NCBI GenBank assembly: GCA_963762255.1
Contig: CAVXKA010000001.1
Location: forward strand, 672,001 to 736,000
Source of the DNA: Candidatus Eiseniibacteriota bacterium
Lineage (GTDB): Bacteria > Eisenbacteria > RBG-16-71-46 > JABDJR01
Length of the DNA stretch: 64,000 nucleotides
Reading direction: 5' to 3'
Part shown: piece after piece, positions 1 to 63,068 of the stretch
How positions within the stretch are numbered: position 1 is the stretch's first letter
Layout of the letters: each line of letters starts with the position of its first letter
Notes under the pieces: model-generated
What the model saw: only the letters and a program-made list of their open reading frames with translations
Told to the model about the DNA's origin: nothing
Database searches by the model: none
Made by a program: the position numbers and the translations under genes

Positions 1-1607
1 CAGCACAGCACACGATCGCGGAGCTGCGTCACCGCGCGGGCGATCGTGCCCCCGACGATCATCGTCGTGCGCGAGGCCACGGTGGGGCCGGAGTCGGGCA
101 CCAGGGAAGTGTCCGCGGGCGCGAACACGACGTCGTCGAGGGTCACCCCCGCCGCCTCCGCGGCGATCATCGTAAGCGCAACCAGCGAGCCCTGGCCGAT
201 GTCGGTCATGGCGGTGAGCACCTCGATGCGCCCGTCGGCGGTGAGCTGCACCGTGACCGGCGAACGCATCTTGTGCTCGCCCTGTCCGGTGAAGCCGGCG
301 CCGTGAAAGTAGAGGCTCATTCCGACGCCGCGCAGCGGCTCGCCGTCCTTGCGCGTGGCGCGCGCCTTCTCGTACTCGAGCCACCGCGCGCGGAAGTTCG
401 TCTTCTTCTCGGCGCGTTCCAGGCAGAGCCGCGCCGAGGCATCGTCCTTGAGCACCTGCCCGGTAGCAAGGCTGTCCCCCGGCCCCACCGCATTGGCCAG
501 GCGCAGGGTCAGGGGATCGATGTCGAGCACCCGTCCGACGCGATCCATGTGCCGTTCGGCGGCGAACATCGTCTGCGGCACGCCGAAGCCGCGGAACGCC
601 CCGTTGGGAGGCGTATGGGTGCGAAGCACGCGACCGCGGATCTTCACGTTCGCGCACCGGTAGGCCCCGGTGGCGTGGAGCACCCCGCGCGAGAGCACGA
701 CCGGCGACAACGTGCGATACGCCCCGCCGTCCAGGTCCGCGTGGATCTCCATCGCGGTCAGCCGTCCGCCCGCGGTCACGCCGGTGCGAAGACGAACGCG
801 CCCCGGGTGTCGCTTGGTGGTGGCCGTGATGTCCTCGTGCCGGTCGTAGACGATCTTGACCGGACGCCCCGACGCCCTCGCGAGAAGCCCGGCATGCGCA
901 GCGAGGATGCTCGGATAGTCCTCCTTGCCGCCGAACCCTCCGCCGATGACGGACGGGCGCACGCGCACCTTGTTCTCGGGAAGGCCGAAGGCGTGCACCA
1001 TCGCGTGATGGATGTAGTAGGGACACTGCATCGAGCCCATCACTTCGAGGGTGCCGTCCGGCTCGAACCAGGCGAGCATCGCCTGGCACTCGATGTAGAT
1101 GTGCTCCTGGTGGCCGCAGAAGTAGACGCCCTCGATGATGTGGGCGGCCTCGGCGAAGCCCCGCGCGAGATTCCCGTGATCGAGGCTCAGCGTGTAGAGC
1201 GGCTCCTCACGCTCGGCGTCCTCCCACGTGAGGACCGGCGGCAGCGGCTCGTACTCGACATCGAAAGCTTCCAGGGAACGCCGCGCCGCATCGCGGGTGG
1301 GCGCCGCCACCAGAGCCACCGCGTCGCCCACATAGCGCACCACGCCCTCGGCGAGCACCGGCCAGGTGTCGTCGATGAGCTGCACGCCGTTGACGCCCGG
1401 GATGTCGCGCGCGGTGACCGCGACCGCGCCCTCGGGGGCGCGCGACGGATCGAAGCGGAGCGAGACGATCCGCGCGTGAGGATGTGGGCTGCGCAGCGTG
1501 GCCCCGAACATCATGCCGGGCAGCGTCAGGTCGTCGGCGTACTTGGCCCCACCTGTCACTTTGGCCCACCCGTCGGGCCGGGGAGGGCTATCTCCTATGC
1601 GAACCAT
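1..1607 (-). CDS. Xanthine dehydrogenase family molybdopterin-binding subunit (3' end runs off window)
   Basis: Translated by hand (absent from ORF track because no stop is reached): MVRIGDSPPRPDGWAKVTGGAKYADDL...LRSPHPHARI, later TDIGQG and DSGPTVASR. GGAGG RBS upstream. Confidence 0.9.
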   Translation of the reverse strand, partial: MVRIGDSPPRPDGWAKVTGGAKYADDLTLPGMMFGATLRSPHPHARIVSLRFDPSRAPEGAVAVTARDIPGVNGVQLIDDTWPVLAEGVVRYVGDAVALVAAPTRDAARRSLEAFDVEYEPLPPVLTWEDAEREEPLYTLSLDHGNLARGFAEAAHIIEGVYFCGHQEHIYIECQAMLAWFEPDGTLEVMGSMQCPYYIHHAMVHAFGLPENKVRVRPSVIGGGFGGKEDYPSILAAHAGLLARASGRPVKIVYDRHEDITATTKRHPGRVRLRTGVTAGGRLTAMEIHADLDGGAYRTLSPVVLSRGVLHATGAYRCANVKIRGRVLRTHTPPNGAFRGFGVPQTMFAAERHMDRVGRVLDIDPLTLRLANAVGPGDSLATGQVLKDDASARLCLERAEKKTNFRARWLEYEKARATRKDGEPLRGVGMSLYFHGAGFTGQGEHKMRSPVTVQLTADGRIEVLTAMTDIGQGSLVALTMIAAEAAGVTLDDVVFAPADTSLVPDSGPTVASRTTMIVGGTIARAVTQLRDRVLC

Positions 1608-1754
1608 GGCCGACCTCCGTAAGAATGTGAGACGAAGCATACCGCATGAGCGGCGCAGGGGGATTCGACAACCGCCATGCGGGTGAGTAGGCTTCCGGTT
1701 GCCGGGCCGCACCGAGGCCCCGCGCTCGCGTCGACGCACCCTCAGGGAGGACCG

Positions 1755-3167
1755 ATGGGCGTTCTCATCAAGAACGGCACGATCGTCACCGCGCTGGATC
1801 GGTGGGTGGGAGACGTCCTCTGCCGCGACGGACGCATCGTTGCGCTGGGCTCCTCGCTCGAAGGCGCGGCCGATGATGAGCTCGTCGACGCTTCCGGCCA
1901 GTACGTCTTCCCCGGTGGCATCGACCCGCACGTGCACCTGTCCCTTCCGGTGATGGGCACGGTCTCCGCGGACGACTTCGAGAGCGGCACCATTGCCGCG
2001 CTCGCCGGCGGCACCACGACCGTTCTCGATTTCGTGCATCCCGAGCGCGATCAGGACTACTTCGAGGCGCTTCGCGCCCGCCGCGCCGAGGCCGCGCGCG
2101 CCGTCATCGACTACGGCTTCCACATGGGCGTGACGTGGTGGGGCGACGGCGTGGCCGAGGCGCTCGGCCGCTGCGTCCGGGATGAGGGCATCCCCTCGTT
2201 CAAGGTCTACATGGCCTACAAGGACACGGTGGGCCTGGACGACCGCGATCTCATTCGGGTGATGCGCGCGGTGGGCGATTTGGGCGGGCTTCTCATGGTC
2301 CACGCGGAGCACGGGGACATGGTGGAGGAGTTGCGCAACCGGTTCGCCGCGGAGGGAAAGACTGCGCCGCGCTACCATGCCCTCTCCCGCCCCCCGGCGC
2401 TGGAAGGCGAAGCGGTGGGGCGCGCGGCGATCCTCGCCGCGTTCAACGGGGTGACCCTCTACGTGGTCCACGTCACTTGCCGCGAGTCGCTTCACAACCT
2501 GGCCGAGGCCCGCGAAGGCGGTGCCCGCGTGCACGGCGAGACCTGCCCGCACTATCTGCTCCTCGACGACTCCGTCTACGACCAACCGTGGGATGCCGCC
2601 GCCCGTTATGTCCTCTCTCCCCCCATCCGCGCGAAGGGCCACCAGGAGGCGCTCTGGGAAGGACTCAAGGCGGGGATCCTCGAGGTCGTCTCCACCGACC
2701 ACTGTCCCTTCAATACGCGCGGGCAAAAAGACGCCGGGCGCGACGATTTTCGCAAGATCCCCAACGGCGCGGCCGGGATCGAGCACCGCATGGCGCTCCT
2801 CTACACGCATGGCGTGGGCACGGGGAAGATCGACCTCTTCCAGTTCGTGGATCTCACCTCCACACGAGCGGCGCGCCTCTTCGGGCTCTACCCGCGGAAG
2901 GGGTCGATCACCGTGGGAGCGGACGCGGATCTGGTCGTCTGGGATCCCGAGGCGACCGGCGTGATCTCGGCGGGGACCCACCACCATCGGTGCGACGCCA
3001 GCATCTACGAGGGGTTTCCCTTACGAGGCCTCCCCTCGACGGTCCTCTCCGGCGGACGTATCCGATTCCACCGCGGCGACTTACGGGCTGAACCCGGGTC
3101 CGGACGGTTCCTCGCTCGGCATGTCGGCACGCTGGAGCGCACAAGAAGGCCCGGGTCACCCTCGTAG
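1755..3167 (+). CDS. hydA: Dihydropyrimidinase / D-hydantoinase
   Basis: PGGIDPHVH, SFKVYMAY, STDHCPF and IPNG motifs. GGGAGG RBS before ATG 1755. Confidence 0.93.
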   Translation: MGVLIKNGTIVTALDRWVGDVLCRDGRIVALGSSLEGAADDELVDASGQYVFPGGIDPHVHLSLPVMGTVSADDFESGTIAALAGGTTTVLDFVHPERDQDYFEALRARRAEAARAVIDYGFHMGVTWWGDGVAEALGRCVRDEGIPSFKVYMAYKDTVGLDDRDLIRVMRAVGDLGGLLMVHAEHGDMVEELRNRFAAEGKTAPRYHALSRPPALEGEAVGRAAILAAFNGVTLYVVHVTCRESLHNLAEAREGGARVHGETCPHYLLLDDSVYDQPWDAAARYVLSPPIRAKGHQEALWEGLKAGILEVVSTDHCPFNTRGQKDAGRDDFRKIPNGAAGIEHRMALLYTHGVGTGKIDLFQFVDLTSTRAARLFGLYPRKGSITVGADADLVVWDPEATGVISAGTHHHRCDASIYEGFPLRGLPSTVLSGGRIRFHRGDLRAEPGSGRFLARHVGTLERTRRPGSPS

Positions 3168-3310
3168 TCCCGGGGCCCGCACGTTGCCCCAATGCCGCAC
3201 GTACGTTCATTCGGAATCGTCTGCTTACGGTTGAGGATAGGGAGCCGGGGGGCCAACCTCGATAGCTTGACAGCGAGACGTTCTGTGTCACTACCTTGCA
3301 GGCTAGCTAT

Positions 3311-3916
3311 ATGTCTATCTCTCGAAACAATGTCCAAGTCAGCGCATTCAATCCTGCGCCCCCGCTCCCCTTCGAGTTGCGAGTGCGGGATTTCCAAATG
3401 GCGATGCAGGACGTGTATGACTTCTTCTATGATGTGAATTCTCACTTGACTAGCAGGGGTTTGCTGAGGCTGGACGACATGCTGCGTCCCGCAATCATGT
3501 CGGGCCTCCTATCCGACATGCTGACCGCCAGCCTTGCCAAGCACTCGAGAGTCCTGAGGGAGAATCAGTACTTCAACGGCCACCCCGATCTGATCGTACA
3601 AGGCGTCTATCCCGGCAATGCCGTCAAGGCGGGTTCGGATGGCGTTGAGATCAAGACGACTAGAAAGGCGGGCGGGGCCGTCGATACCCACGGGGCCCGC
3701 GAACAGTGGATGTGTGTCTTCGTGTATGGCGTAGACACGGAAACGGAACCTGCTCTCGATCGCCTCCCCATGACCTTCAGGGAGGTCTATCTCGGACACG
3801 TCGTCAGCGATGATTTCAGACGGAATCCACGCAGCGAGCTTGGCACGCGCACGGCCACCCTGCACAAGGACGGCATCCAGAAACTCCGCCAGAACTGGAT
3901 CTACCGTTTGGGGTGA
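3311..3916 (+). CDS. Putative type II restriction endonuclease, PD-(D/E)xK fold
   Basis: GHPDL...GVEIKTT motif. Convergent with and overlapping a DNA methyltransferase; lower GC than flanks. Confidence 0.7.
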   Translation: MSISRNNVQVSAFNPAPPLPFELRVRDFQMAMQDVYDFFYDVNSHLTSRGLLRLDDMLRPAIMSGLLSDMLTASLAKHSRVLRENQYFNGHPDLIVQGVYPGNAVKAGSDGVEIKTTRKAGGAVDTHGAREQWMCVFVYGVDTETEPALDRLPMTFREVYLGHVVSDDFRRNPRSELGTRTATLHKDGIQKLRQNWIYRLG

Positions 3917-5058
3917 TTCCCATTCGGGGTGAAGCGGGTCAGTTTGGGGATCGCCTCGCAGGCCATCGTGAAGAAGTGCTCGTCCTTCTCCACTCCGACA
4001 CTCGCATATCCTACGGCCTCCGCAGCTGCCAGGGTCGATCCCGCCCCGGCGAACGGGTCGAGGACGACGCCCCTTCCCAAAGGCAGCGCTGCTCGCACGA
4101 GTTGTCGAAGGAACGACTGCGGCTTGAGGCTCGGGTGGGGAGCTAGGTTGCGCTCCGCCTTACGTGTCGGCAGCGAGCTGATGACATCCCCGAATGGCTT
4201 GTCCTGAGATGGCCGGCGGAATCCTCCGGTATGCCACTTCCTCAAATTGTCCTGCACTCGTCCTTCAATGGGCTTACGGTACACGATCCACGGCTCCCAC
4301 ATGGATCGAGGCATGACGCTGATTTCCGGAAACTCCTCGTGTGCTGCCTTGGGGCGGTCCCCCCCCCTCATGGTCATCGTCAACCGAACAACTTCCCCCC
4401 GACGTTCCAACCCGGCATCCGCGAGCGCGCCGGAAACCAGATAGGACAGAAGCGGATTGGACGCGATCACGACGTGAGCACCGGGAACGAGTTTCGGCAG
4501 CAGCAGTCGCGCCCAGACAAAGAAGTAGGTGCGCAGGTACTCTAGCTGCGCCGGGGCAAGAGTCGTGAATCTCGGGAGCGGGGAACGCACGTGACCGTCA
4601 AACGACGGGGGGATACGCCAGACCCCTCCCTTCCCATTGCGGAGCTTCGCCTGTTGTTCGGCCGTGTATTCGTGCAGACCGTAGGGAGGGTCCGTCACGA
4701 CGGCGTGGAAACTGTGGTCCGGCTGCTGTTCCAGCCAATCGAAACAGTCGGCATGATGCAATGTCGCTTTGCCGAACGTCGCCGGGGCGGCCCAGTCCTC
4801 TTCCAGCGACAATTCCCGTTGGATCCCCGCCCCCCCCACTGGTCGAACGGCGTAGGAGCCCCGGCCTTCCCGGACAAACATCCCCGGGGTATTCAATCGG
4901 AGATAGGACCGGATCGAGGACCCGGCAGTGGGGCCGATGACCTGGCTGACGCGTTCCTCAATCTCCTTGACGGAGAGTGCCTTGGAGGTAAGCGACATCA
5001 CTTGCAGGATGCCATCCCTCACGTGACCAGGAGAGTATCTGACTCGGTCATCCTTCAT
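3901..5058 (-). CDS. N4-C/N6-A DNA methyltransferase (beta class) with N-terminal winged-helix-like extension
   Basis: TDPPY precedes HPSLKP and LDPFAGAGST. The first ~70 aa look like a wHTH. Confidence 0.9.
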   Translation of the reverse strand: MKDDRVRYSPGHVRDGILQVMSLTSKALSVKEIEERVSQVIGPTAGSSIRSYLRLNTPGMFVREGRGSYAVRPVGGAGIQRELSLEEDWAAPATFGKATLHHADCFDWLEQQPDHSFHAVVTDPPYGLHEYTAEQQAKLRNGKGGVWRIPPSFDGHVRSPLPRFTTLAPAQLEYLRTYFFVWARLLLPKLVPGAHVVIASNPLLSYLVSGALADAGLERRGEVVRLTMTMRGGDRPKAAHEEFPEISVMPRSMWEPWIVYRKPIEGRVQDNLRKWHTGGFRRPSQDKPFGDVISSLPTRKAERNLAPHPSLKPQSFLRQLVRAALPLGRGVVLDPFAGAGSTLAAAEAVGYASVGVEKDEHFFTMACEAIPKLTRFTPNGNHPKR

Positions 5059-5266: not shown

Positions 5267-5665
5267 ATGAAAGACGCGCTCGCGGTTCTCAAGGACCACG
5301 GCATCCAGCCAACCCCGCAGCGGATCGCGCTGGCGGAGTGCATTCTCGAGGAGACCTCCCACCCGACCGCGGATCAGGTCTGGGAGCGGGTGCGATCGAG
5401 CTGCCCCACGATCTCCCGGGCGACGGTCTACAACACGCTCAACTTGTTCGTGGAGAAGGGGATCCTCAAGGCGCAGGTGCTGCGTGAGGGGACCGTGGTC
5501 TTCGACCCGTTCACCGCCGCGCACCATCACTTTATCGACGAGGAGACCGGCCAGATCGTCGACATCCCCTGGGATGCGGTGAGGGTGGAGGGGAGCGCCT
5601 CGCTGGACGGCCTCGAAGTCCGCGAGTTCCAGGTCGTCATGCGTGGGCGTCGGAAGAAGCCCTGA
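5267..5665 (+). CDS. Fur family regulator (Irr/PerR-like, HHH motif, no CxxC)
   Basis: TPQR, HPTA, SRATVYNTL and HHHFID motifs. Lies upstream of catalase. Confidence 0.9.
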   Translation: MKDALAVLKDHGIQPTPQRIALAECILEETSHPTADQVWERVRSSCPTISRATVYNTLNLFVEKGILKAQVLREGTVVFDPFTAAHHHFIDEETGQIVDIPWDAVRVEGSASLDGLEVREFQVVMRGRRKKP

Positions 5666-5694
5666 CCGGCGGGCCCCCTTTTTTTGCACCCAAC

Positions 5695-5709
5695 TTAGAC
5701 GCTATCTAA
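5695..5709 (+). promoter_or_regulatory. Second operator copy TTAGA-CGCTA-TCTAA upstream of catalase
   Basis: Perfect 5-bp arms; matches the site at 5247-5261. Confidence 0.65.
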
Positions 5710-5755
5710 ATCAGGACACCATCCAACGAAGAACCAGAGACGGAGGCACAGAACC

Positions 5756-7189
5756 ATGAAGAAGAAGCAACTCACCACCGCCGCCGGCATCCCCGTCGGT
5801 GATAACCAGAACTCGCTAACCGCGGGACCGCGAGGCCCCATCCTCGTCCAGGACTGGCAGCTCTTCGAGAAGCACGCGCACTTCAACCGCGAGCGCATCC
5901 CGGAGCGGGTCGTGCACGCGAAGGGCTCGGCGGCGTACGGCGCCTTCACCGTCACCGGCGACATCACCCGCTTCACCAAGGCCGCGATCTTCTCGTCGGT
6001 CGGCAAGAAGACCGACCTGCTTCTGCGCTTCTCCACGGTGGCCGGCGAGCGCGGCGCGGCGGATGCCGAGCGCGACGTGCGCGGCTTCGCGCTCAAGTTC
6101 TACACGGATGAGGGAAACTGGGATCTGGTCGGCAACAACACCCCGGTCTTCTTCGTGCGCGATCCCTTCAAGTTCTCCGATTTCATCCGCACGCAGAAGC
6201 GCGATCCCAAGTCGAACCTACGCAACACGACCGCGATGTGGGACTTCTGGTCCCTCTCCCCCGAGAGCCTCCACCAAGTCACAATCCTCTTCTCCGACCG
6301 AGGGCTCCCGAAAAGCTACCGTCACATGCACGGCTTCGGCAGCCATACCTACAGCCTCTTCAACGCGAAGAACGAGCGGTTCTGGGTCAAGTTCCACTTC
6401 AAGACGATGCAGGGGATCCAGAACCTCACGGACGATGAGGCCGCACGCATCGTCGCCGGCGACCGCGAGAGCCATCAGCGCGATCTCTTCGACGCGATCG
6501 AGCGCGGCGAGTATCCCAAGTGGCGCGTCATGGTGCAGGTGATGCCGGAGAAGGACGCTGATAAGACCTCGTACAACCCCTTCGACCTCACCAAGGTCTG
6601 GCCGTACGCGGACTACCCGCTCATCGAGGTCGGCGTGATGGAGCTGAACCGGAACCCCGAGAACTACTTCGCGGAGGTGGAGCAGGCGGCCTTCTCGCCG
6701 GCCAACGTCGTCCCCGGCATCGGCCACAGCCCGGACAAGATGCTCCAGTTCCGAGTCGTCTCGTACGCGGACGCCCATCGCTATCGTCTCGGCGTCAACT
6801 ACGAGAGCCTTCCCGTGAATCGGCCGCGCTGCCCGGTGAACACCTATCACCGCGACGGAGCCATGCGCTTCGACGACAACGGCGGCGCCTCGGTGAACTA
6901 CGAGCCGAACAGTTTCGGGGGCCCCACCGAGGACCCTCGCTTCAAGGAGCCGCCGCTGCGCATCTCCGGCGATGCCGACCGCTACGACCATCGGGCCGGC
7001 AACGACGACTTCACGCAGGCGGGAAACCTCTATCGCCTCATGCCCAAGGACGAACGCGAACGGCTTCACGTTGCCATCGCGGGCGCGATGCGAGGAGTTC
7101 CTCAAGAGATCGTCGACCGCCAGCTCGCGCACTTCGAGAAGGCCGATGCCGCGTATGCGGCCGGCGTGCGCCGGGCGCTGAAGGGCTGA
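5756..7189 (+). CDS. katA: Monofunctional heme catalase (small subunit)
   Basis: [23 protein letters not shown] and RVVSYADAH motifs. Confidence 0.97.
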
Positions 7190-9205: not shown

Positions 9206-10354
9206 ATTTACGAGGTCAAGGCGCTCGAAGACCGCAAGGAGCGGGCCGTGCTGGTCGGCCTGGTCCCGTCCCCGACCGAAGAAGACTCCCTCGATGAGCT
9301 TTCTCTCCTCGCCCAGACCGCCGGCGCCGAGGTCGTCGACCGGCTCCGCCAACGCCGGGATTCCATCCGCGCCGGCACGTTCCTGAGCCGGGGCAAACTG
9401 GAACGGCTCAAGGAACTCGCGCGCGAAGCCGAGATCGATCTCGTCATCTTCGACGACGATCTCTCCCCCGGCCAGGTGAAGAACCTGGAGACTCAGCTCG
9501 AGTGCAAGGTGGTCGACCGCAGCGAGCTGATCCTCGCCATCTTCGCCGAGCGCGCCCACACGCGCGAGTCCCGCCTCCAAGTCGAGTTGGCACAGCTCGA
9601 GTACCTCCTCCCGCGGCTCACCCGAATGTGGGTCCACCTTTCGCGTCAACAGGGTGGCATAGGCACCCGAGGCCCCGGCGAAACCCAGCTCGAAGTCGAC
9701 CGCCGCCGGGTGCGCGAGAAGATCGCGTTTCTCAAGAAACGGCTCGAGGAGGTGGACCGCGAGCGGGAAGTGCAGCGCTCGCGCCGCCATCGCGTGCACC
9801 GCTGCGCGCTGGTGGGGTACACGAACGCGGGCAAGTCCACGCTCATGAACGCGCTCACCGGGGCCGGTGTGCTCACCGAGGACAAGCTCTTCGCCACCCT
9901 GGACGCCACCACCCGGCGCTACCGGTTTCCCGAAGGACAGGTGACGCTCTTCACCGACACCGTGGGGTTCATCAGGAAGCTCCCGCATCACCTGGTCGCC
10001 TCGTTTCGCTCCACCCTGCGCGAAGTCATCGAAGCCGATCTCTTGCTCCACGTCGTGGATGCATCCAACCCGGCCGCTGAAGAGCAGATTGAGACCGTGT
10101 ATCAGGTACTCGAGCAGATCGGGGCGGCAGGCAGGCCGACGATTCTTGCGCTGAACAAGGCGGATGTGGCCGACGAAGCCACCCTCCTTGGGCTGCGAGC
10201 CCGACACGCCAGGTCGGTTGTCTGTTCGGCCGTGCGGCGTGCGGGGCTCGATGATCTGCGGGCCCGGGTCCTCGAGGAAGTGATCCGTTCGGATGGCCGG
10301 CCGGCCACCGGTGAAGGGGCCCACAGCGATGCTTCCACAGAATCTCCCATGTAA
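9206..10354 (+). CDS. hflX: GTPase HflX (probable ATT start at 9206; first canonical start is GTG 9248)
   Basis: GPGETQLEVDRR, GYTNAGKST, LFATLD, DTVGFI and NKAD motifs. Confidence 0.95.
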   Translation: MYEVKALEDRKERAVLVGLVPSPTEEDSLDELSLLAQTAGAEVVDRLRQRRDSIRAGTFLSRGKLERLKELAREAEIDLVIFDDDLSPGQVKNLETQLECKVVDRSELILAIFAERAHTRESRLQVELAQLEYLLPRLTRMWVHLSRQQGGIGTRGPGETQLEVDRRRVREKIAFLKKRLEEVDREREVQRSRRHRVHRCALVGYTNAGKSTLMNALTGAGVLTEDKLFATLDATTRRYRFPEGQVTLFTDTVGFIRKLPHHLVASFRSTLREVIEADLLLHVVDASNPAAEEQIETVYQVLEQIGAAGRPTILALNKADVADEATLLGLRARHARSVVCSAVRRAGLDDLRARVLEEVIRSDGRPATGEGAHSDASTESPM

Positions 10355-57755: not shown

Positions 57756-59078
57756 GTGACCAAGGCCGAAATCCTCAAGATCTGCAAGACGGAAGGCGTC
57801 CGCTTCATGCGGCTCCAGTTCACGGACATTCACGGAGCCAACAAGAACGTCGAGCTGCCGGCCAGCCAGTTCCAGAAGGCCTTGGACGGAGAGATCATGT
57901 TCGACGGATCCTCGATCGAGGGGTTCACCCGCATCGAGGAGTCGGACATGCTCCTCCACCCGGATCTGACCACGTTCCGGATCTTCCCGCTCGACGGCGG
58001 TCGCGGGAAGGTGGCGCGGCTCGTCTGCGACGTGAAGATGCCGGACGGAGCCGACTTCGACGGCGATCCCCGCACCTGCCTCCGACGCATGACGGAGAAG
58101 GCGAAGAAGCTCGGGTACACGCTGATGGTCGGTCCCGAAGTGGAGTTCTTCCTCTTCCTGTTCGACGCGGACGGCGCGCCCTCGGTGAAGACCCACGACG
58201 CAGGCGCCTACTTCGATCTCGCCCCCATCGACAAGGGGGAAGAGTGCCGCCGGGACATCGTGCAGGCCCTCGAGGCGATGGGCTTCGAGGTGGAGGCCGC
58301 GCACCACGAAGTGGCCCACGGCCAACACGAGATCGACTTCCGCTACGGCGAGGCGCTGCACACCGCGGACAACGTAGCCACGTTCCGCTTCCTGGTGCGG
58401 CACATCGCCCGTCAGCACGGGCTTCACGCCACGTTCATGCCCAAGCCGATCTTTGGCCAGAACGGCAGCGGCATGCACTGCCACCAGTCGCTCTTCAAGG
58501 GGGACAAGAACTCCTTCTACGACCCGAAGGGCGACTACGAGCTGAGCAAGGTGGCCCTCCAGTACATCGCCGGCATCCTGCGGCACGCCAAGGGGTTCGT
58601 GGCCATCACCAACCCCATCGTCAACTCCTACAAGCGGCTGGTTCCGGGCTACGAGGCCCCCACCAACGTCGCGTGGTCGGAGCGCAACCGTAGCCCGATG
58701 GTCCGCATCCCCGCGCGCCGCGGTGTCGGCACCCGGTGCGAGGTGCGCCTCCCCGATCCCTCCTGCAACCCCTACCTCGCCTTCGCGGTGATGCTGGCGG
58801 CGGGTCTCGACGGGATCGAGAAGAAGATGGATCCCGGCCCCCCCGTGAACAAGAACGTCTTCCGGATGAGCGAGCGGGAGAAGCGGCGTCACAAGATCGA
58901 CGACCTTCCTTCGACGCTTTCGGAAGCGATCGACGAGCTGGAGAAGGACAAGGTGATCCTGGACGCGCTGGGCCCGCATCTCGCCCAGAGCTACGTCGAC
59001 GCGAAGAGGCAGGTCTGGACGGAGTTCCTGGCCCAGGTGCATCCTTGGGAGCTGGATCGGTATCTGGCGTACTACTAA
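57756..59078 (+). CDS. glnA: Glutamine synthetase type I (short alpha type)
   Basis: FDGSSIEG, HHEVA.GQHEI, FMPKP, NGSGMH and NSYKRLVPGYEAP motifs. Confidence 0.97.
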   Translation: MTKAEILKICKTEGVRFMRLQFTDIHGANKNVELPASQFQKALDGEIMFDGSSIEGFTRIEESDMLLHPDLTTFRIFPLDGGRGKVARLVCDVKMPDGADFDGDPRTCLRRMTEKAKKLGYTLMVGPEVEFFLFLFDADGAPSVKTHDAGAYFDLAPIDKGEECRRDIVQALEAMGFEVEAAHHEVAHGQHEIDFRYGEALHTADNVATFRFLVRHIARQHGLHATFMPKPIFGQNGSGMHCHQSLFKGDKNSFYDPKGDYELSKVALQYIAGILRHAKGFVAITNPIVNSYKRLVPGYEAPTNVAWSERNRSPMVRIPARRGVGTRCEVRLPDPSCNPYLAFAVMLAAGLDGIEKKMDPGPPVNKNVFRMSEREKRRHKIDDLPSTLSEAIDELEKDKVILDALGPHLAQSYVDAKRQVWTEFLAQVHPWELDRYLAYY

Positions 59079-59141
59079 AGGAGGCGCGCGTGGGTCGGGG
59101 GGCGATGGATCGGTTCGTATCGCTCGGCTATCGCGCGCTGA

Positions 59142-59900
59142 TCAGGGAGGGGTGAGCGGGGAGAACATCTCCGGCGCGATCTCCGGGTTGGTCTTCACGG
59201 ATCGGAACCGCACGATCGCGGTCTTCACACCCCCGGCGTAGCTGTCCTCGCGGAACGGGAAGAGGACTCCGTGCACCCACCGGAACTCGCTCAGGTCCAC
59301 CGCCGAGTCCGTGGGTGTGGGGCTCGAGAGCCGCATGGAAACGCGCTCGATGCGGTGCTTCCTGGGGTCCACGTGGTACTCGAGCGACGTGCCCCCACTG
59401 AGCGGCAACTGCAGGACCACGCGCTCCTTGTCGTCCGGATCCATCCGCACGAGGCTGCTCTCCTGCTCGGCGAGGCGCAGCGGCAGATCCAGCCGTGCGG
59501 CCTCCAGCCGAAGCGTCTCGAGGAACACGCCTGTCACCGGTTGCAGGTGCCGGTCGTCGGGGCCGCCCCAGCCCTCGTCGCCGCGCACAACCCGTAGCTC
59601 GCCGCGGTCGGGGTAACGCAGTTCAATCCGAAGCCCGTCGGATCGCTCGCGCCAGCGCACGATGTGCCCCTGCTCGCGATGCCCGGTCGCGGTGAGGATT
59701 CCCTCGGCGCGGTAGGCGCGCACCTTGCCGAGCGCGGCGGCGCCGCCGTACGCATCGAGGATCTCCTGCACCAGGTCGTGCACGTCGGCGCGCGCCTTCG
59801 CCTGCGAATCGGCGGAGCCCCGCCCGCCCTGACACCCCACGGTGGCAAGGAGAATCGCCACGGCAAAGCCCGTCTGTGTTGCGCGGCGAGCGAGTTGCAT
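59142..59900 (-). CDS. Putative lipoprotein (LolA-like fold)
   Basis: Lipobox-like TVGC; AYGG and EFRWVHGVLFPF. Confidence 0.65.
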   Translation of the reverse strand: MQLARRATQTGFAVAILLATVGCQGGRGSADSQAKARADVHDLVQEILDAYGGAAALGKVRAYRAEGILTATGHREQGHIVRWRERSDGLRIELRYPDRGELRVVRGDEGWGGPDDRHLQPVTGVFLETLRLEAARLDLPLRLAEQESSLVRMDPDDKERVVLQLPLSGGTSLEYHVDPRKHRIERVSMRLSSPTPTDSAVDLSEFRWVHGVLFPFREDSYAGGVKTAIVRFRSVKTNPEIAPEMFSPLTPP

Positions 59901-60007
59901 GGTGCACATCCTAGCGCGTCGGGACGGGATCGCGCCTCTCCTATGGTACGATCTTCGCGTCGCACGGAACCGCCACCGGCAGGACGTCCTGGACCGATCA
60001 CCAACCG

Positions 60008-61360
60008 ATGAACCACCGCCTGACCCTCCTTCTCATCCTTCTCATCGTCGTAGCGGCGCTCGCCTCCAGCGGGGCCTTGCGCGGACAAATGCGGCAGGGC
60101 GAGAACCTCACGATCTTCTTCACCGGAGACGACGCGGGCGAGATCGCCCCCTGCGGGTGACCGGTCGAAGACTACGGTGGGGTGTCCCGGAGGGCCGCCT
60201 TCTTCGACACGTTGCGAACCGCGGGCTGGGAGTTCCTGGTGGTCTCAACCGGGGATCTGGCCCCGTTCGAAGGGATGAATTCGCAGGGGTTGCTCCGCAC
60301 CGAGACGCTGGCCAAGGCCATGGCGCTCATGCGCTACGACGCGATTGCGCTGGGAGACCACGATCTCGAGCCCGGCCCGACCTTTGTGAAGGACTTGGTC
60401 GGGTGGCTCGGCCAACCCGTTCTCGCCACCAACTACGCGCTGCCCGATCCGGCGGCCAGCGTGCGAACCCGCCTGACTCAAGTGCGAGGCAAGAAGGTCG
60501 GGCTCCTCGCATTCCTCGATCCCGACTTGGCCGAAGACCGCGCGCCGTGGGTCACGGTGGAGCCGTTCGCGAGCGCGCGGGCCGTGGTCGACTCGCTGCG
60601 GGGCCGTTGCGACGTGCTGGTCGCGCTGGCCCACCTCGGCGACGAGAGCAAGGTGGCGGAGCTTCACGCGCTCTACCCCGGCATCGATCTCTTCCTTCTC
60701 GGCCACGAGGGCGCGATGCCGGCCAGGCTCTATCGGCTGGACCGTTCGGCGGTGATGGGGGGCGGGGCGCGCGGCCGGCACCTGGGGCGGACCGACATCT
60801 CCTTCGGCGCGGACGATTCGATCCAGAACTTCGAGGGGGCCTATCTTCCCGTGATCATGGCCTGGGGTCGCCGCTCGTGGGTTGACACGTTGCTCGACGA
60901 TTACTACGAGCGCGTCAAGCGGCTCACCATGACCGCGGAGTTCGAGCAGGAAATCCTGAACTCGCTGGAGGAGCCTACGGTCGAGTACGTCGGGAACGAG
61001 GCGTGCTCATCCTGCCATGAGGCCGAAACCCGGCAGTGGGCCTCGACGCCGCACGCGCGGGCTCGCGAGACGCTCGTGAAGGCCAAGTCCGACCACGACA
61101 CGCAATGCCAGTCCTGCCACAGCACGGGGTTCGGCTATCGCACCGGGTTCGCCACCCCCAAGAGCACGCCCGCACGGTACAACGTGGGATGCGAGGCGTG
61201 CCACGGCGCGGGGGCGGAGCACGCGAAGAATCCGGCCGCACCGTACGGGGCAACGGGTGAGGCCCTGTGCGTCACCTGCCACGACGCGCACAACAGTCCG
61301 AAGTTCGACTACGCAACCTATCGCCCCAGGATCGTGCACGGCACCGCGAAGACGAAGTAG
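60008..61360 (+). CDS. Secreted selenoprotein: UshA-like metallophosphoesterase domain (C-G-U) + tetraheme cytochrome c
   Basis: ATG 60008 with signal peptide; in-frame TGA at 60158-60160 in APCG*PVEDYGG; downstream hairpin; four CxxCH motifs. Confidence 0.85.
60164..60209 (+). promoter_or_regulatory. Putative bacterial SECIS hairpin
   Basis: gtcgaaga/tcttcgac and ggtgg/ccgcc stems with an apical G-containing loop about 27-28 nt after the UGA. Confidence 0.6.
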
Positions 61361-61377
61361 GCGCGGCGCCCCGTCGG

Positions 61378-61629
61378 CTAGTGCTTCTTGAGCGCGCGGT
61401 AGACGATAAGCAGCAAGATCGCGCCCCCCACCGCCAAGGCAAAGCTGCGGAAGTCGAGCCCGCTCACCGTGCCCCACCCGAGGCGCGAGCCGATGAACCC
61501 ACCGATCAGGGCGCCGGCGACGCCAAGAAGCATGGTGATGATGCACCCGCCCGGGTCCCTGCCCGGCATGAGGAGCTTGGCCACAGCGCCCGCCACGAGC
61601 CCCAAGACGATCCAGTAGAGAATGTTCAT
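61378..61629 (-). CDS. GlsB/YeaQ/YmgE family membrane protein
   Basis: WIVLGLVAGAVAKLLMPG motif. Confidence 0.92.
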   Translation of the reverse strand: MNILYWIVLGLVAGAVAKLLMPGRDPGGCIITMLLGVAGALIGGFIGSRLGWGTVSGLDFRSFALAVGGAILLLIVYRALKKH

Positions 61630-61766
61630 CGTCGCGCCTTCTACCTCGCCGGCCCCGCGGCCCAGGGTGAACTCGGGTCACTCCTTCGCGCACCCGACCG
61701 GGGCGCGCCGATCACGACGGAGGATCCTGTCGCCTATACTAACGCCGTGAGCGCCCTCGTGCATTC

Positions 61767-63068
61767 ATGCTATCCGCGAGCCGACCGGCTCGCAGGAGAT
61801 CCTTCGTGACCGGTATCTGCATCGCGGTCATGGCCGCGTTTCTGCTCGGGCCCGGCCCCGGCGCACTCGCCGACACCGCTCAGGTGCGCACCTTCCCGGT
61901 CACCGTGGTCGCGGACGCATCGTTCCGCTCGGTGCGCGATTGGGACACGCTCGCCCGCACCACTGTCGAAAGGGCCTCGCGCGAGATCTTTACCCTGACC
62001 GGTATCCGCTTCACCGTGCGCGAGCAAGTCGTGTGGGACCGCCCGGACGACTCCACCGCGCTCGACCGGATCCTCGATGACGGCCGCGCGGCGTTCGGTG
62101 GCCGCGACGAATTGGTGGCCATCTTTTGCGGCCCGCGCGCGGAGGAGGGTGACCTCGTCACGATGGGCTACGCGTATCTCGGCCGGCAGATCCTGGTCGT
62201 CGCGCCCCACCGCTCGGACGACTTCATCCCCGGCTACCGCATGGCGGACGACCTCACCCGTACGTTTCTCCACGAGTTCGGCCATGTCCTCGGCATCCCT
62301 CACCTCAAGGGTCGCAACATCATGTCGGGACGATGGGACGAGGTGACCGGCGATTTCAACGAACTCTCTCTCGATGTGCTGCGCGCCAATCGATCGATGC
62401 GCTTCAGCGCCGACGAGCCGTTTCTAGGTTGCGACCTCGGCGTCCTGCGCGATGTTTATCTCTTCTGGGACGACCGCGGCGAGTGCGAACCGACACTGCT
62501 CGTCAATCTCGGCATCGCTCTGCTTCGGGAGGGCCGGCCGCGGGACGCGCGTGCGCCGTTCGAGAGGGCCCTTCGCGCGAAGCCGCTGGCCGCGTCGGCC
62601 CGCCTGGGTCTTTCGCGTTGTGCGCTGGCGGAGGGCGACACCTCTCTCTCTCGCGGGTTCGCCGCCGAGGCCTCGGCGGACACCACGCTGAGACCGGATC
62701 TTCTTGGCGCGCTCGGCAATCACTGGCTGGCGCTGGGGGACACCGTTCAAGCGGACCGCATGTTCACCCGGAGCATCGCCGCGGATTCGCTGCGCTTCAC
62801 ACCTTGGTACAACCGGGGCGTGACCCGTTACCGGCAGGGTCGCTTCGCCGAGGCGGCAGAGGACTTGCGGCGCGCCCTGACCCTGGAGGAGCGCCCCGAG
62901 GCGTGGTTCAATCTGGGGCTGGCGCTTGAGATGGACAAGGACTTCGGAGACGCGCAGGCGGCGTTCGAGCGCTATCTGGAACTCGTCCCCGAGGGACCGC
63001 GCGCGGAGACCGCCCGGAGCCATCTGACGTGGCTGCGTTCCATCCGGGATCCGGCCGCCGATCGCTGA
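61767..63068 (+). CDS. Secreted metzincin-like protease + TPR repeats
   Basis: HEFGHVLGIPH with NIM Met-turn; C-terminal TPRs; start uncertain. Confidence 0.82.
   Translation: MLSASRPARRRSFVTGICIAVMAAFLLGPGPGALADTAQVRTFPVTVVADASFRSVRDWDTLARTTVERASREIFTLTGIRFTVREQVVWDRPDDSTALDRILDDGRAAFGGRDELVAIFCGPRAEEGDLVTMGYAYLGRQILVVAPHRSDDFIPGYRMADDLTRTFLHEFGHVLGIPHLKGRNIMSGRWDEVTGDFNELSLDVLRANRSMRFSADEPFLGCDLGVLRDVYLFWDDRGECEPTLLVNLGIALLREGRPRDARAPFERALRAKPLAASARLGLSRCALAEGDTSLSRGFAAEASADTTLRPDLLGALGNHWLALGDTVQADRMFTRSIAADSLRFTPWYNRGVTRYRQGRFAEAAEDLRRALTLEERPEAWFNLGLALEMDKDFGDAQAAFERYLELVPEGPRAETARSHLTWLRSIRDPAADR

Follow-up and report, generated by a model that had tools for sequence, protein, structure and literature searches.

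The window analysed here is the whole stretch of DNA, 64 kb in length. At 60008 to 61360 on its forward strand, we observed a single frame that runs from an ATG at 60008 to a TAG at 61358-61360 and spans 450 amino acids with one internal stop. That stop is the TGA at 60158-60160, codon 51. It lies between IFFTGDDAGEIAPCG and PVEDYGG, and its context can be written IFFTGDDAGEIAPCG-U-PVEDYGG or, in a second rendering, TGDDAGEIAPCG-U-PVEDYGG. In all likelihood the gene is genuine and intact and encodes a selenoprotein, predicted to be exported and to carry four hemes. Its features are as follows.

60008..61360, plus strand: full gene, 450 aa, with UGA as predicted Sec at codon 51 and TAG as stop (GC3, homologue alignment)
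60008..60085, plus strand: predicted Sec-pathway signal peptide, about residues 1-26 (hydropathy of the protein itself and of 10 homologues, model helix 3-20)
60098..60937, plus strand: predicted 5'-nucleotidase/UshA-type metallophosphoesterase-fold domain, about residues 31-310 (structure matches, motif alignment, column counts)
60152..60160, plus strand: Cys49-Gly50-Sec51 motif, TGC GGG TGA (C49/C51 conservation, Cys/TGA alternation among loci)
60164..60208, plus strand: candidate bacterial SECIS hairpin, apical loop GGA at 60189-60191 (consensus rule, pairs kept in L001)
60182..60184, plus strand: GTG start of the truncated table-11 ORF, which is without signal peptide and CxU (ORF call; P0004, P0020, P0021)
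60974..61342, plus strand: predicted cytochrome c554-like tetraheme domain, about residues 323-445 (PF13435, 1bvb match, His conservation)
61004, 61106, 61190 and 61268, plus strand: CxxCH motifs CSSCH, CQSCH, CEACH and CVTCH

The gene, its database copy and its surroundings

The 50 codons upstream of the TGA are coding. Their GC3 is 0.88, compared with 0.86-0.89 downstream, and residues 1-50 align with the N-termini of full-length homologues from Met1. The preliminary description had carried the frame through one TGA (codon 51) to the ATG at 60008, and translation, GC3 and the homologue alignment bear it out. The table-11 ORF starts at the GTG at 60182, 3' of the TGA, and the database copy of the protein has 373 aa. 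Seven of the 22 closest database homologues also begin just downstream of the codon-51 site, and P0004, P0020 and P0021 share their first residue with the truncated window ORF. The expectation that standard annotation would truncate such proteins was therefore correct.

Restoring the upstream codons yields an N-terminus with positive charge and an 11-residue hydrophobicity maximum of 3.64, a Sec-type signal-like profile (by hydropathy check, not SignalP). The same check found no later transmembrane-like stretch and no RRxF in the protein. A signal-peptide-like N-terminus is common to 10 homologues by hydropathy, and residues 3-20 are helical in the AlphaFold model described below. The N-terminus is probably a Sec-pathway signal peptide, in agreement with the one that had been proposed upstream of the TGA.

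The neighbours of the gene are glnA, a divergent gene of unknown family, a small membrane protein and a peptidase-TPR protein. We found no conserved redox operon around the gene and no sigma-70-like promoter in 59000-62000. A functional operon was rejected: the neighbours give no clue, and other clades of the family have different, clade-specific neighbours. The divergent gene (59142-59909, minus strand) has a signal-like N-terminus and keeps its position in L001; it had no Pfam or NCBIfam match, and its Atlas look-alikes include LolA-like, DUF2092 and DUF6503 clusters. Elsewhere in the family, Cys forms lie in a MoxR/DUF58/BatA-vWA/DUF4159 cluster (Planctomycete, Verrucomicrobiota), often with a thioredoxin-HEAT gene, and in another set of Cys forms DUF1573 domains are found nearby or as fusion partners. 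The MoxR-cluster loci and the DUF1573 set are drawn from L007-L011, L016, L018, L020, L031, L035, L044, L050, L058 and L072.

Further features lie at the start of the window. A xanthine-dehydrogenase-type molybdoenzyme subunit (1-1589, minus strand) is cut at the window edge, and a dihydropyrimidinase gene that scores above its cut-off (1752-3167, plus strand) diverges from it. The subunit has a sub-cut-off match to a selenium-dependent xanthine dehydrogenase model, and selenium-cofactor genes are sometimes found together with molybdoenzyme clusters of this kind. A DNA methyltransferase-like gene (3901-5058, minus strand) converges on a 206-aa ORF without an NCBIfam match (3296-3916, plus strand); together they are possibly a restriction-modification pair. 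At 5267-7189 (plus strand), a Fur/PerR-family regulator gene is followed directly by a catalase gene.

Probable selenocysteine at codon 51

The preliminary description had paired the codon-51 TGA with the Cys or Sec of homologues, and alignment supports the pairing. Among the best 80 of 383 confirmed related loci, the site is Cys in 60 and TGA in 10; of the remainder, 3 are without a resolved site and 7 are eight-heme proteins that match via the cytochrome alone. In the aligned relatives covering the site, C49 is found in 122/125 and C51 in 124/125. At one locus, L022, the CGC motif (near 10100-10134) and the remainder of the gene are in different frames, owing either to a frameshift or to a misassembly.

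Could the TGA instead be a true stop, through nonsense mutation or sequencing error, or could UGA be read as Trp or Gly? Most close orthologues do carry Cys (among the 22 closest database homologues, the 15 that extend across the site all have Cys), and the hairpin is unremarkable in stability. Moreover, tRNA-Sec, selA, selB and selD were not seen within the 64-kb window (Rfam, ARAGORN and 21 further ORFs scanned, with no matches from Rfam or ARAGORN). Near the 10 TGA loci, no tRNA genes were found within the fetched sequence. However, the nearest genome with DNA, L001 from Ca. Eisenbacteria, is syntenic (e.g. glnA) and carries the same TGA in a protein of 59% identity, with both gene halves intact around it. 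It is implausible that the two genes share a nonsense mutation and yet have conserved the coding sequence on either side of it. TGA also occupies the site in nine loci more distant than L001 (among the best 80 of 383). A recoded genetic code (UGA as Trp or Gly) was rejected, because TGA is the usual stop in the window, ending 14 of 24 genes, and Trp is TGG 186 times. When 1354 in-frame TGA codons were examined, 6 passed a filter for gene-like codons and 5 of these overlap opposite-strand genes; the codon-51 TGA was the only one flanked on both sides by gene-like codons that was not an opposite-strand shadow. We judge a genuine stop or a Trp/Gly reading very improbable, and consider it highly likely from the comparative evidence that UGA-51 is decoded as Sec.

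We placed the TGA genes in a tree of 76 rows, built by a quick method and leaving out Cys loci above L040 (except four), motif-unparsed loci and most library hits. In it, the TGA genes occupy three separate positions. The window gene falls in a starred clade of six rows, comprising 2 TGA genes, 4 database proteins truncated after the site and no Cys members. Two of these four truncated proteins lie on contigs >2 Mb, so a contig end is unlikely to be the cause of the truncation.

A long hairpin after the UGA had also been described. It exists: the hairpin at 60164-60208 is the MFE fold, with its loop GGA 28 nt after the UGA. It fits the bSECIS rule (a 3-9 nt loop with G, 16-37 nt after the UGA, a stem of at least 4 bp and an MFE of -7.5 or lower), a consensus that we took from the part of PMC13188914 available to us. 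The same rule is satisfied after 155/431 codons of the same gene and by 573/1000 synonymous variants. Across the family, 9-11 of the 11 TGA genes and 20-26 of 56 Cys genes conform to it, depending on fold length, a comparison whose p-values overstate the difference since the 11 TGA genes form about three related groups. What did not hold was any unusual stability: against dinucleotide shuffles the hairpin is no stabler than chance (Z -0.04 to +0.82), and 371/1000 synonymous recodings fold at least as stably as the native sequence. L001 keeps 16/16 hairpin pairs, with one double compensatory change and two one-sided changes. Synonymous-site conservation against L001 is not raised in the hairpin (10/15, vs 143/240 elsewhere, p 0.79). 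With z near 0 against shuffles and recodings and flat synonymous conservation, we did not accept the stability of the hairpin as proving a SECIS. Nor does the motif TGYGGNTGA alone prove anything, because the window contains 7 copies where 4 would be expected. We conclude that the hairpin agrees with a SECIS without independently establishing one; it is the homologue evidence, rather than the hairpin, that carries the Sec call.

The codon string GGC GGT CTG is invariant in nine other TGA genes, most of which fold it with a GGUCU loop; at the equivalent Gly, GGT is found in 4/50 Cys genes. This fixed string makes a better case than the hairpin that the TGA genes of the family encode true selenoproteins. 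We take the GGUCU loop to resemble that of the E. coli fdhF SECIS. Eight Sec-type genes with GGC GGT CTG and the GGUCU loop form a clade (L028, L041, L045, L047, L048, L051, L052 and L053). These lie mostly beside an ABC transporter and DUF4340 gene set and are labelled as very different taxa although their synteny is common.

A nucleotidase fold joined to a tetraheme domain

An AlphaFold model built from 147 sequences (pLDDT 94.3, pTM 0.90) replaced a first model from 23 sequences, in which the CGU loop and the heme domain had pLDDT <50. Residues 31-310 of the model match 5'-nucleotidase 2z1a (VIA Z 30.4, rmsd 2.7, 275 aligned) and SoxB 2wdc (Z 27.7). With UshA/CD73/CpdB and SoxB, the protein shares a predicted metallophosphoesterase fold (Z 27-30), probable export and a two-domain layout. 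However, identity is about 20%, its scores are far below the cut-offs of those families, and the window protein differs in its incomplete dimetal ligands, its CGU loop and a cytochrome in place of the C-domain. Indeed, PF02872, the nucleotide-binding C-domain, gave no match, the C-terminus being PF13435.

We examined the metal site by motif alignment. D41, D83, D117, H118, H209 and H233 are kept, and the motif I second His, the GNH Asn and the last ligand of GHxH/Q are changed: the hydrolase motifs read DDA/GD/GDH/H/GHEG in the window protein and DTH/GD/GNH/H/GHS in the Thermus enzyme, leaving the dimetal set DxH/GD/GNH/H/GHxH(Q) incomplete. Apart from the catalytic His, the metal-ligand roles are those that we presume for UshA. 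In that enzyme His117 is essential for catalysis and the C-domain binds substrate, according to the accessible portion of PMC7922932. The GNH Asn is present in 1/147 relatives, and Asn and His together in 0/147. The motif I second His occurs in 6/124 and the set D41, D83, H209 and H233 in 25/124, whereas C49 and C51 occur together in 121/124 full-length relatives. Among the 11 TGA genes, 5 have H209 and 5 have H233. The window protein and its close clade keep most of the metal ligands, with H118, the equivalent of the catalytic His, in 16/23.

Might the selenoprotein still be a metal-dependent hydrolase, a phosphoesterase or SoxB-like thiohydrolase in which CxU is structural or redox-regulatory and the hemes are a sensor or accessory? 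The six ligands that it retains and its fold matches to 5'-nucleotidases (Z about 30) and SoxB argue for this, as does the presence of D83, [DEN]117, H209 and H233 together in 66/124 relatives. However, virtually no family member has all the canonical ligands, several Sec members are without nearly all metal ligands, and the substrate-binding C-domain is missing. Sec, moreover, is usually catalytic. We regard hydrolysis as the main function as unlikely. A bound metal or residual hydrolase activity in the window protein is possible, because its clade retains more ligands than the family average, and the protein itself more than other Sec members. The Cys51 position aligns with the loop Cys of CD73-type nucleotidases, which presumably forms a structural disulfide.

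The C-terminal domain matched PF13435 (E 5e-13), and in the model residues 323-450 match cytochrome c554 1bvb (VIA Z 12.9, rmsd 2.3, 128 aligned). The CSSCH, CQSCH, CEACH and CVTCH motifs listed in the preliminary description are all present. All four CxxCH, H349 and H405 are invariant (147/147), and H444 is found in 139/146. The protein therefore has the marks of the c554 type, namely four CxxCH, three distal His and a predicted c554 fold. Because there are four heme motifs and only three conserved extra His, the sequence suggests that one heme of the four is open, that is, five-coordinate. Four CxxCH, a matching fold and three extra His are likewise what the domain has in common with c554 (Nitrosomonas, 1bvb) and with hemes 1-4 of OcwA (6i5b). 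Unlike these, the window heme domain is compact and fused to a CxU domain, with the ammonia-oxidation context absent, and against the c554 model NF043010 it scores 42 bits where the cut-off is 400.

A two-chain prediction with the N-domain and heme domain of a natural Cys homologue scored 0.25 against a mark of 0.32 and was counted neither way. The hemes are not always needed, since relatives without a cytochrome domain exist (P0024, P0080). P0024, P0079, P0080, P0082 and P0084 are about 300-340 aa, carry CGC or CNC and have no cytochrome; some may be fragments.

Family placement and proposed function

The best-matching family was NCBIfam NF041198, UshA_like_PCGU, 'UshA-like (seleno)protein' (E 3e-66). 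At 224.2 bits, the window protein is below the curated equivalog cut-off of 275. It matches positions 15-271 and 366-519 of the 519-position profile, and positions 366-519 match the cytochrome part alone (E 5e-33). Because NF041198 spans both domains, the UshA-tetraheme fusion is the family's normal architecture. The window protein has everything that this architecture comprises: the PCG(U/C) motif, the UshA-type N-domain and the C-terminal multiheme (tetraheme) domain, in a family with both Sec and Cys forms. L001 scores 242.1 and the Desulfobulbia-type L066 scores 586 bits; the cut-off is passed by 5/8 tested TGA loci and 16/52 other tested relatives. The window protein is missing what L066 has from about position 272 to about position 345 of the profile, and these ~70 positions partly explain why its clade falls below the cut-off. 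The window gene also differs from NF041198 members in lying in a separate, well-supported clade with the Ca. Eisenbacteria gene. NF049981, UshA-like (seleno)protein family 2, has a related N-domain (E 2e-15), but the window protein scores 57 bits against its cut-off of 140. That model has 262 positions, and its motif is CxxU in the part of PMC13188914 that we could consult, where the window motif is CxU.

We file the protein in the broad UshA-like CxU selenoprotein family and, by score, outside the NF041198 equivalog. It has the UshA-like (COG0737) domain, a TGA aligned to a conserved Cys and relatives with TGA elsewhere. The consulted sections of PMC2398784 count 76 selenoproteins and 92 Cys homologues in this family, which also appears in tables seen in PMC9312934 and PMC13188914. 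The earlier statement that UshA-like (seleno)proteins carry CGC or CGU at this position is correct, Cys and Sec forms coexisting in the family. Its estimate of novelty was too high, as the tetraheme fusion is built into NF041198 and selenoprotein catalogues have included the family since 2008. What was already known is the protein type and its architecture, both covered by a curated family. The additions made here are a divergent Sec-using subclade missed by the HMM cut-off and an explicit case for abandoned hydrolysis.

The family has 2298 representatives at 50% identity (E up to 1e-30), in phyla that include Planctomycetota, Armatimonadota, Verrucomicrobiota, Myxococcota, Acidobacteriota and others. 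In a plasmid collection, the 14 matching records were all ordinary 5'-nucleotidases, and none reached 80% coverage. Searching the literature outside most subscription journals and supplements, we came across no experimental work on this family. Preprint 10.1101/2022.07.06.499078, searched by term, does not mention it, the accessible part of PMC8840924 held nothing further, and no paper was found that pairs Sec decoding with Eisenbacteria.

What might such a protein do? We mildly favour a periplasmic, heme-fed thiol/selenol oxidoreductase built on a repurposed 5'-nucleotidase fold, because selection acts on CxC/U and the heme chain and not on the dimetal site. In this proposal, UGA-51 would be decoded as Sec, with the in-frame hairpin serving as SECIS, and the protein would be exported via the Sec translocon and then loaded with four c-type hemes. 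The nucleotidase fold would serve mainly as scaffold and substrate cleft. The working centre would be the Cys-Gly-Sec loop, cycling between selenolate/thiol and selenenyl-sulfide, and the c554-like heme chain, standing in for the nucleotide-binding C-domain of UshA, would relay electrons between periplasmic redox partners and this loop. The substrate would sit in the former nucleotidase cleft, where Cys49/Sec51 would attack an S-S/S-Se bond of it or create one on it, and the hemes would restore the redox state of the CxU motif. The net reaction would most likely be the making or breaking of an S-S/S-Se bond in a periplasmic substrate (a protein disulfide, persulfide or polysulfide).

The conservation pattern and thioredoxin-fold fusions back this redox reading indirectly. 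DsbA/GILT-type thioredoxin-fold fusions occur in P0083, P0127, P0196, P0042 and P0044, and a thioredoxin-HEAT gene family lies inside the fetched flanks of 13 loci (best 80 of 383). P0083 (1207 aa) combines two UshA-like domains (CEC and CGC) with DsbA/thioredoxin-like domains and one c554 domain. A functional analogy, and only that, comes from MccSep (ExtKL polysulfide reductase, NF040886), which is also a periplasmic multiheme c selenoprotein. There, Sec, Cys and heme cleave the S-S bonds of polysulfide, according to the available text of PMC13510729. That text gives MccSep five hemes, a Sec near the C-terminus (U325) and a heme-ligating Cys, whereas the window protein has four motifs and Sec51; NF040886 did not match the window protein at E 0.01.

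An alternative is that Cys49 and Sec51 are metal ligands that replace the lost His/Gln, and/or that small N- or S-oxyanions react at an open heme 2, as in c554/OcwA. The CGU loop directly follows motif I, where one ligand is lost, and the count of four heme motifs with three conserved extra His fits one five-coordinate heme. However, the partner ligands are not co-conserved with CxC, the thioredoxin-fold fusions favour disulfide chemistry, and an OcwA-like distal His-His pair was not noted from the sequence. We think this explanation improbable and keep to the thiol/selenol oxidoreductase.

For annotation, the case matters in that the database copy loses both the signal peptide and the key motif, and the gene misses the HMM cut-off that would name it. 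For function, invariant CxC/U and hemes set against decayed hydrolase ligands make a specific, testable prediction, and natural Cys forms among the close homologues allow functional tests without Sec insertion. More tentatively, and with somewhat less than even confidence, we propose a widespread class of periplasmic oxidoreductases in which the fold has abandoned hydrolysis and a Cys-Gly-Sec/Cys loop is wired directly to c554-type hemes. If this is true, Sec decoding would be indicated in an Eisenbacteria-like lineage, Sec and Cys forms would have interchanged several times in the family, and many phyla would possess a heme-driven disulfide/polysulfide route outside the cytoplasm, independent of DsbB/DsbD.
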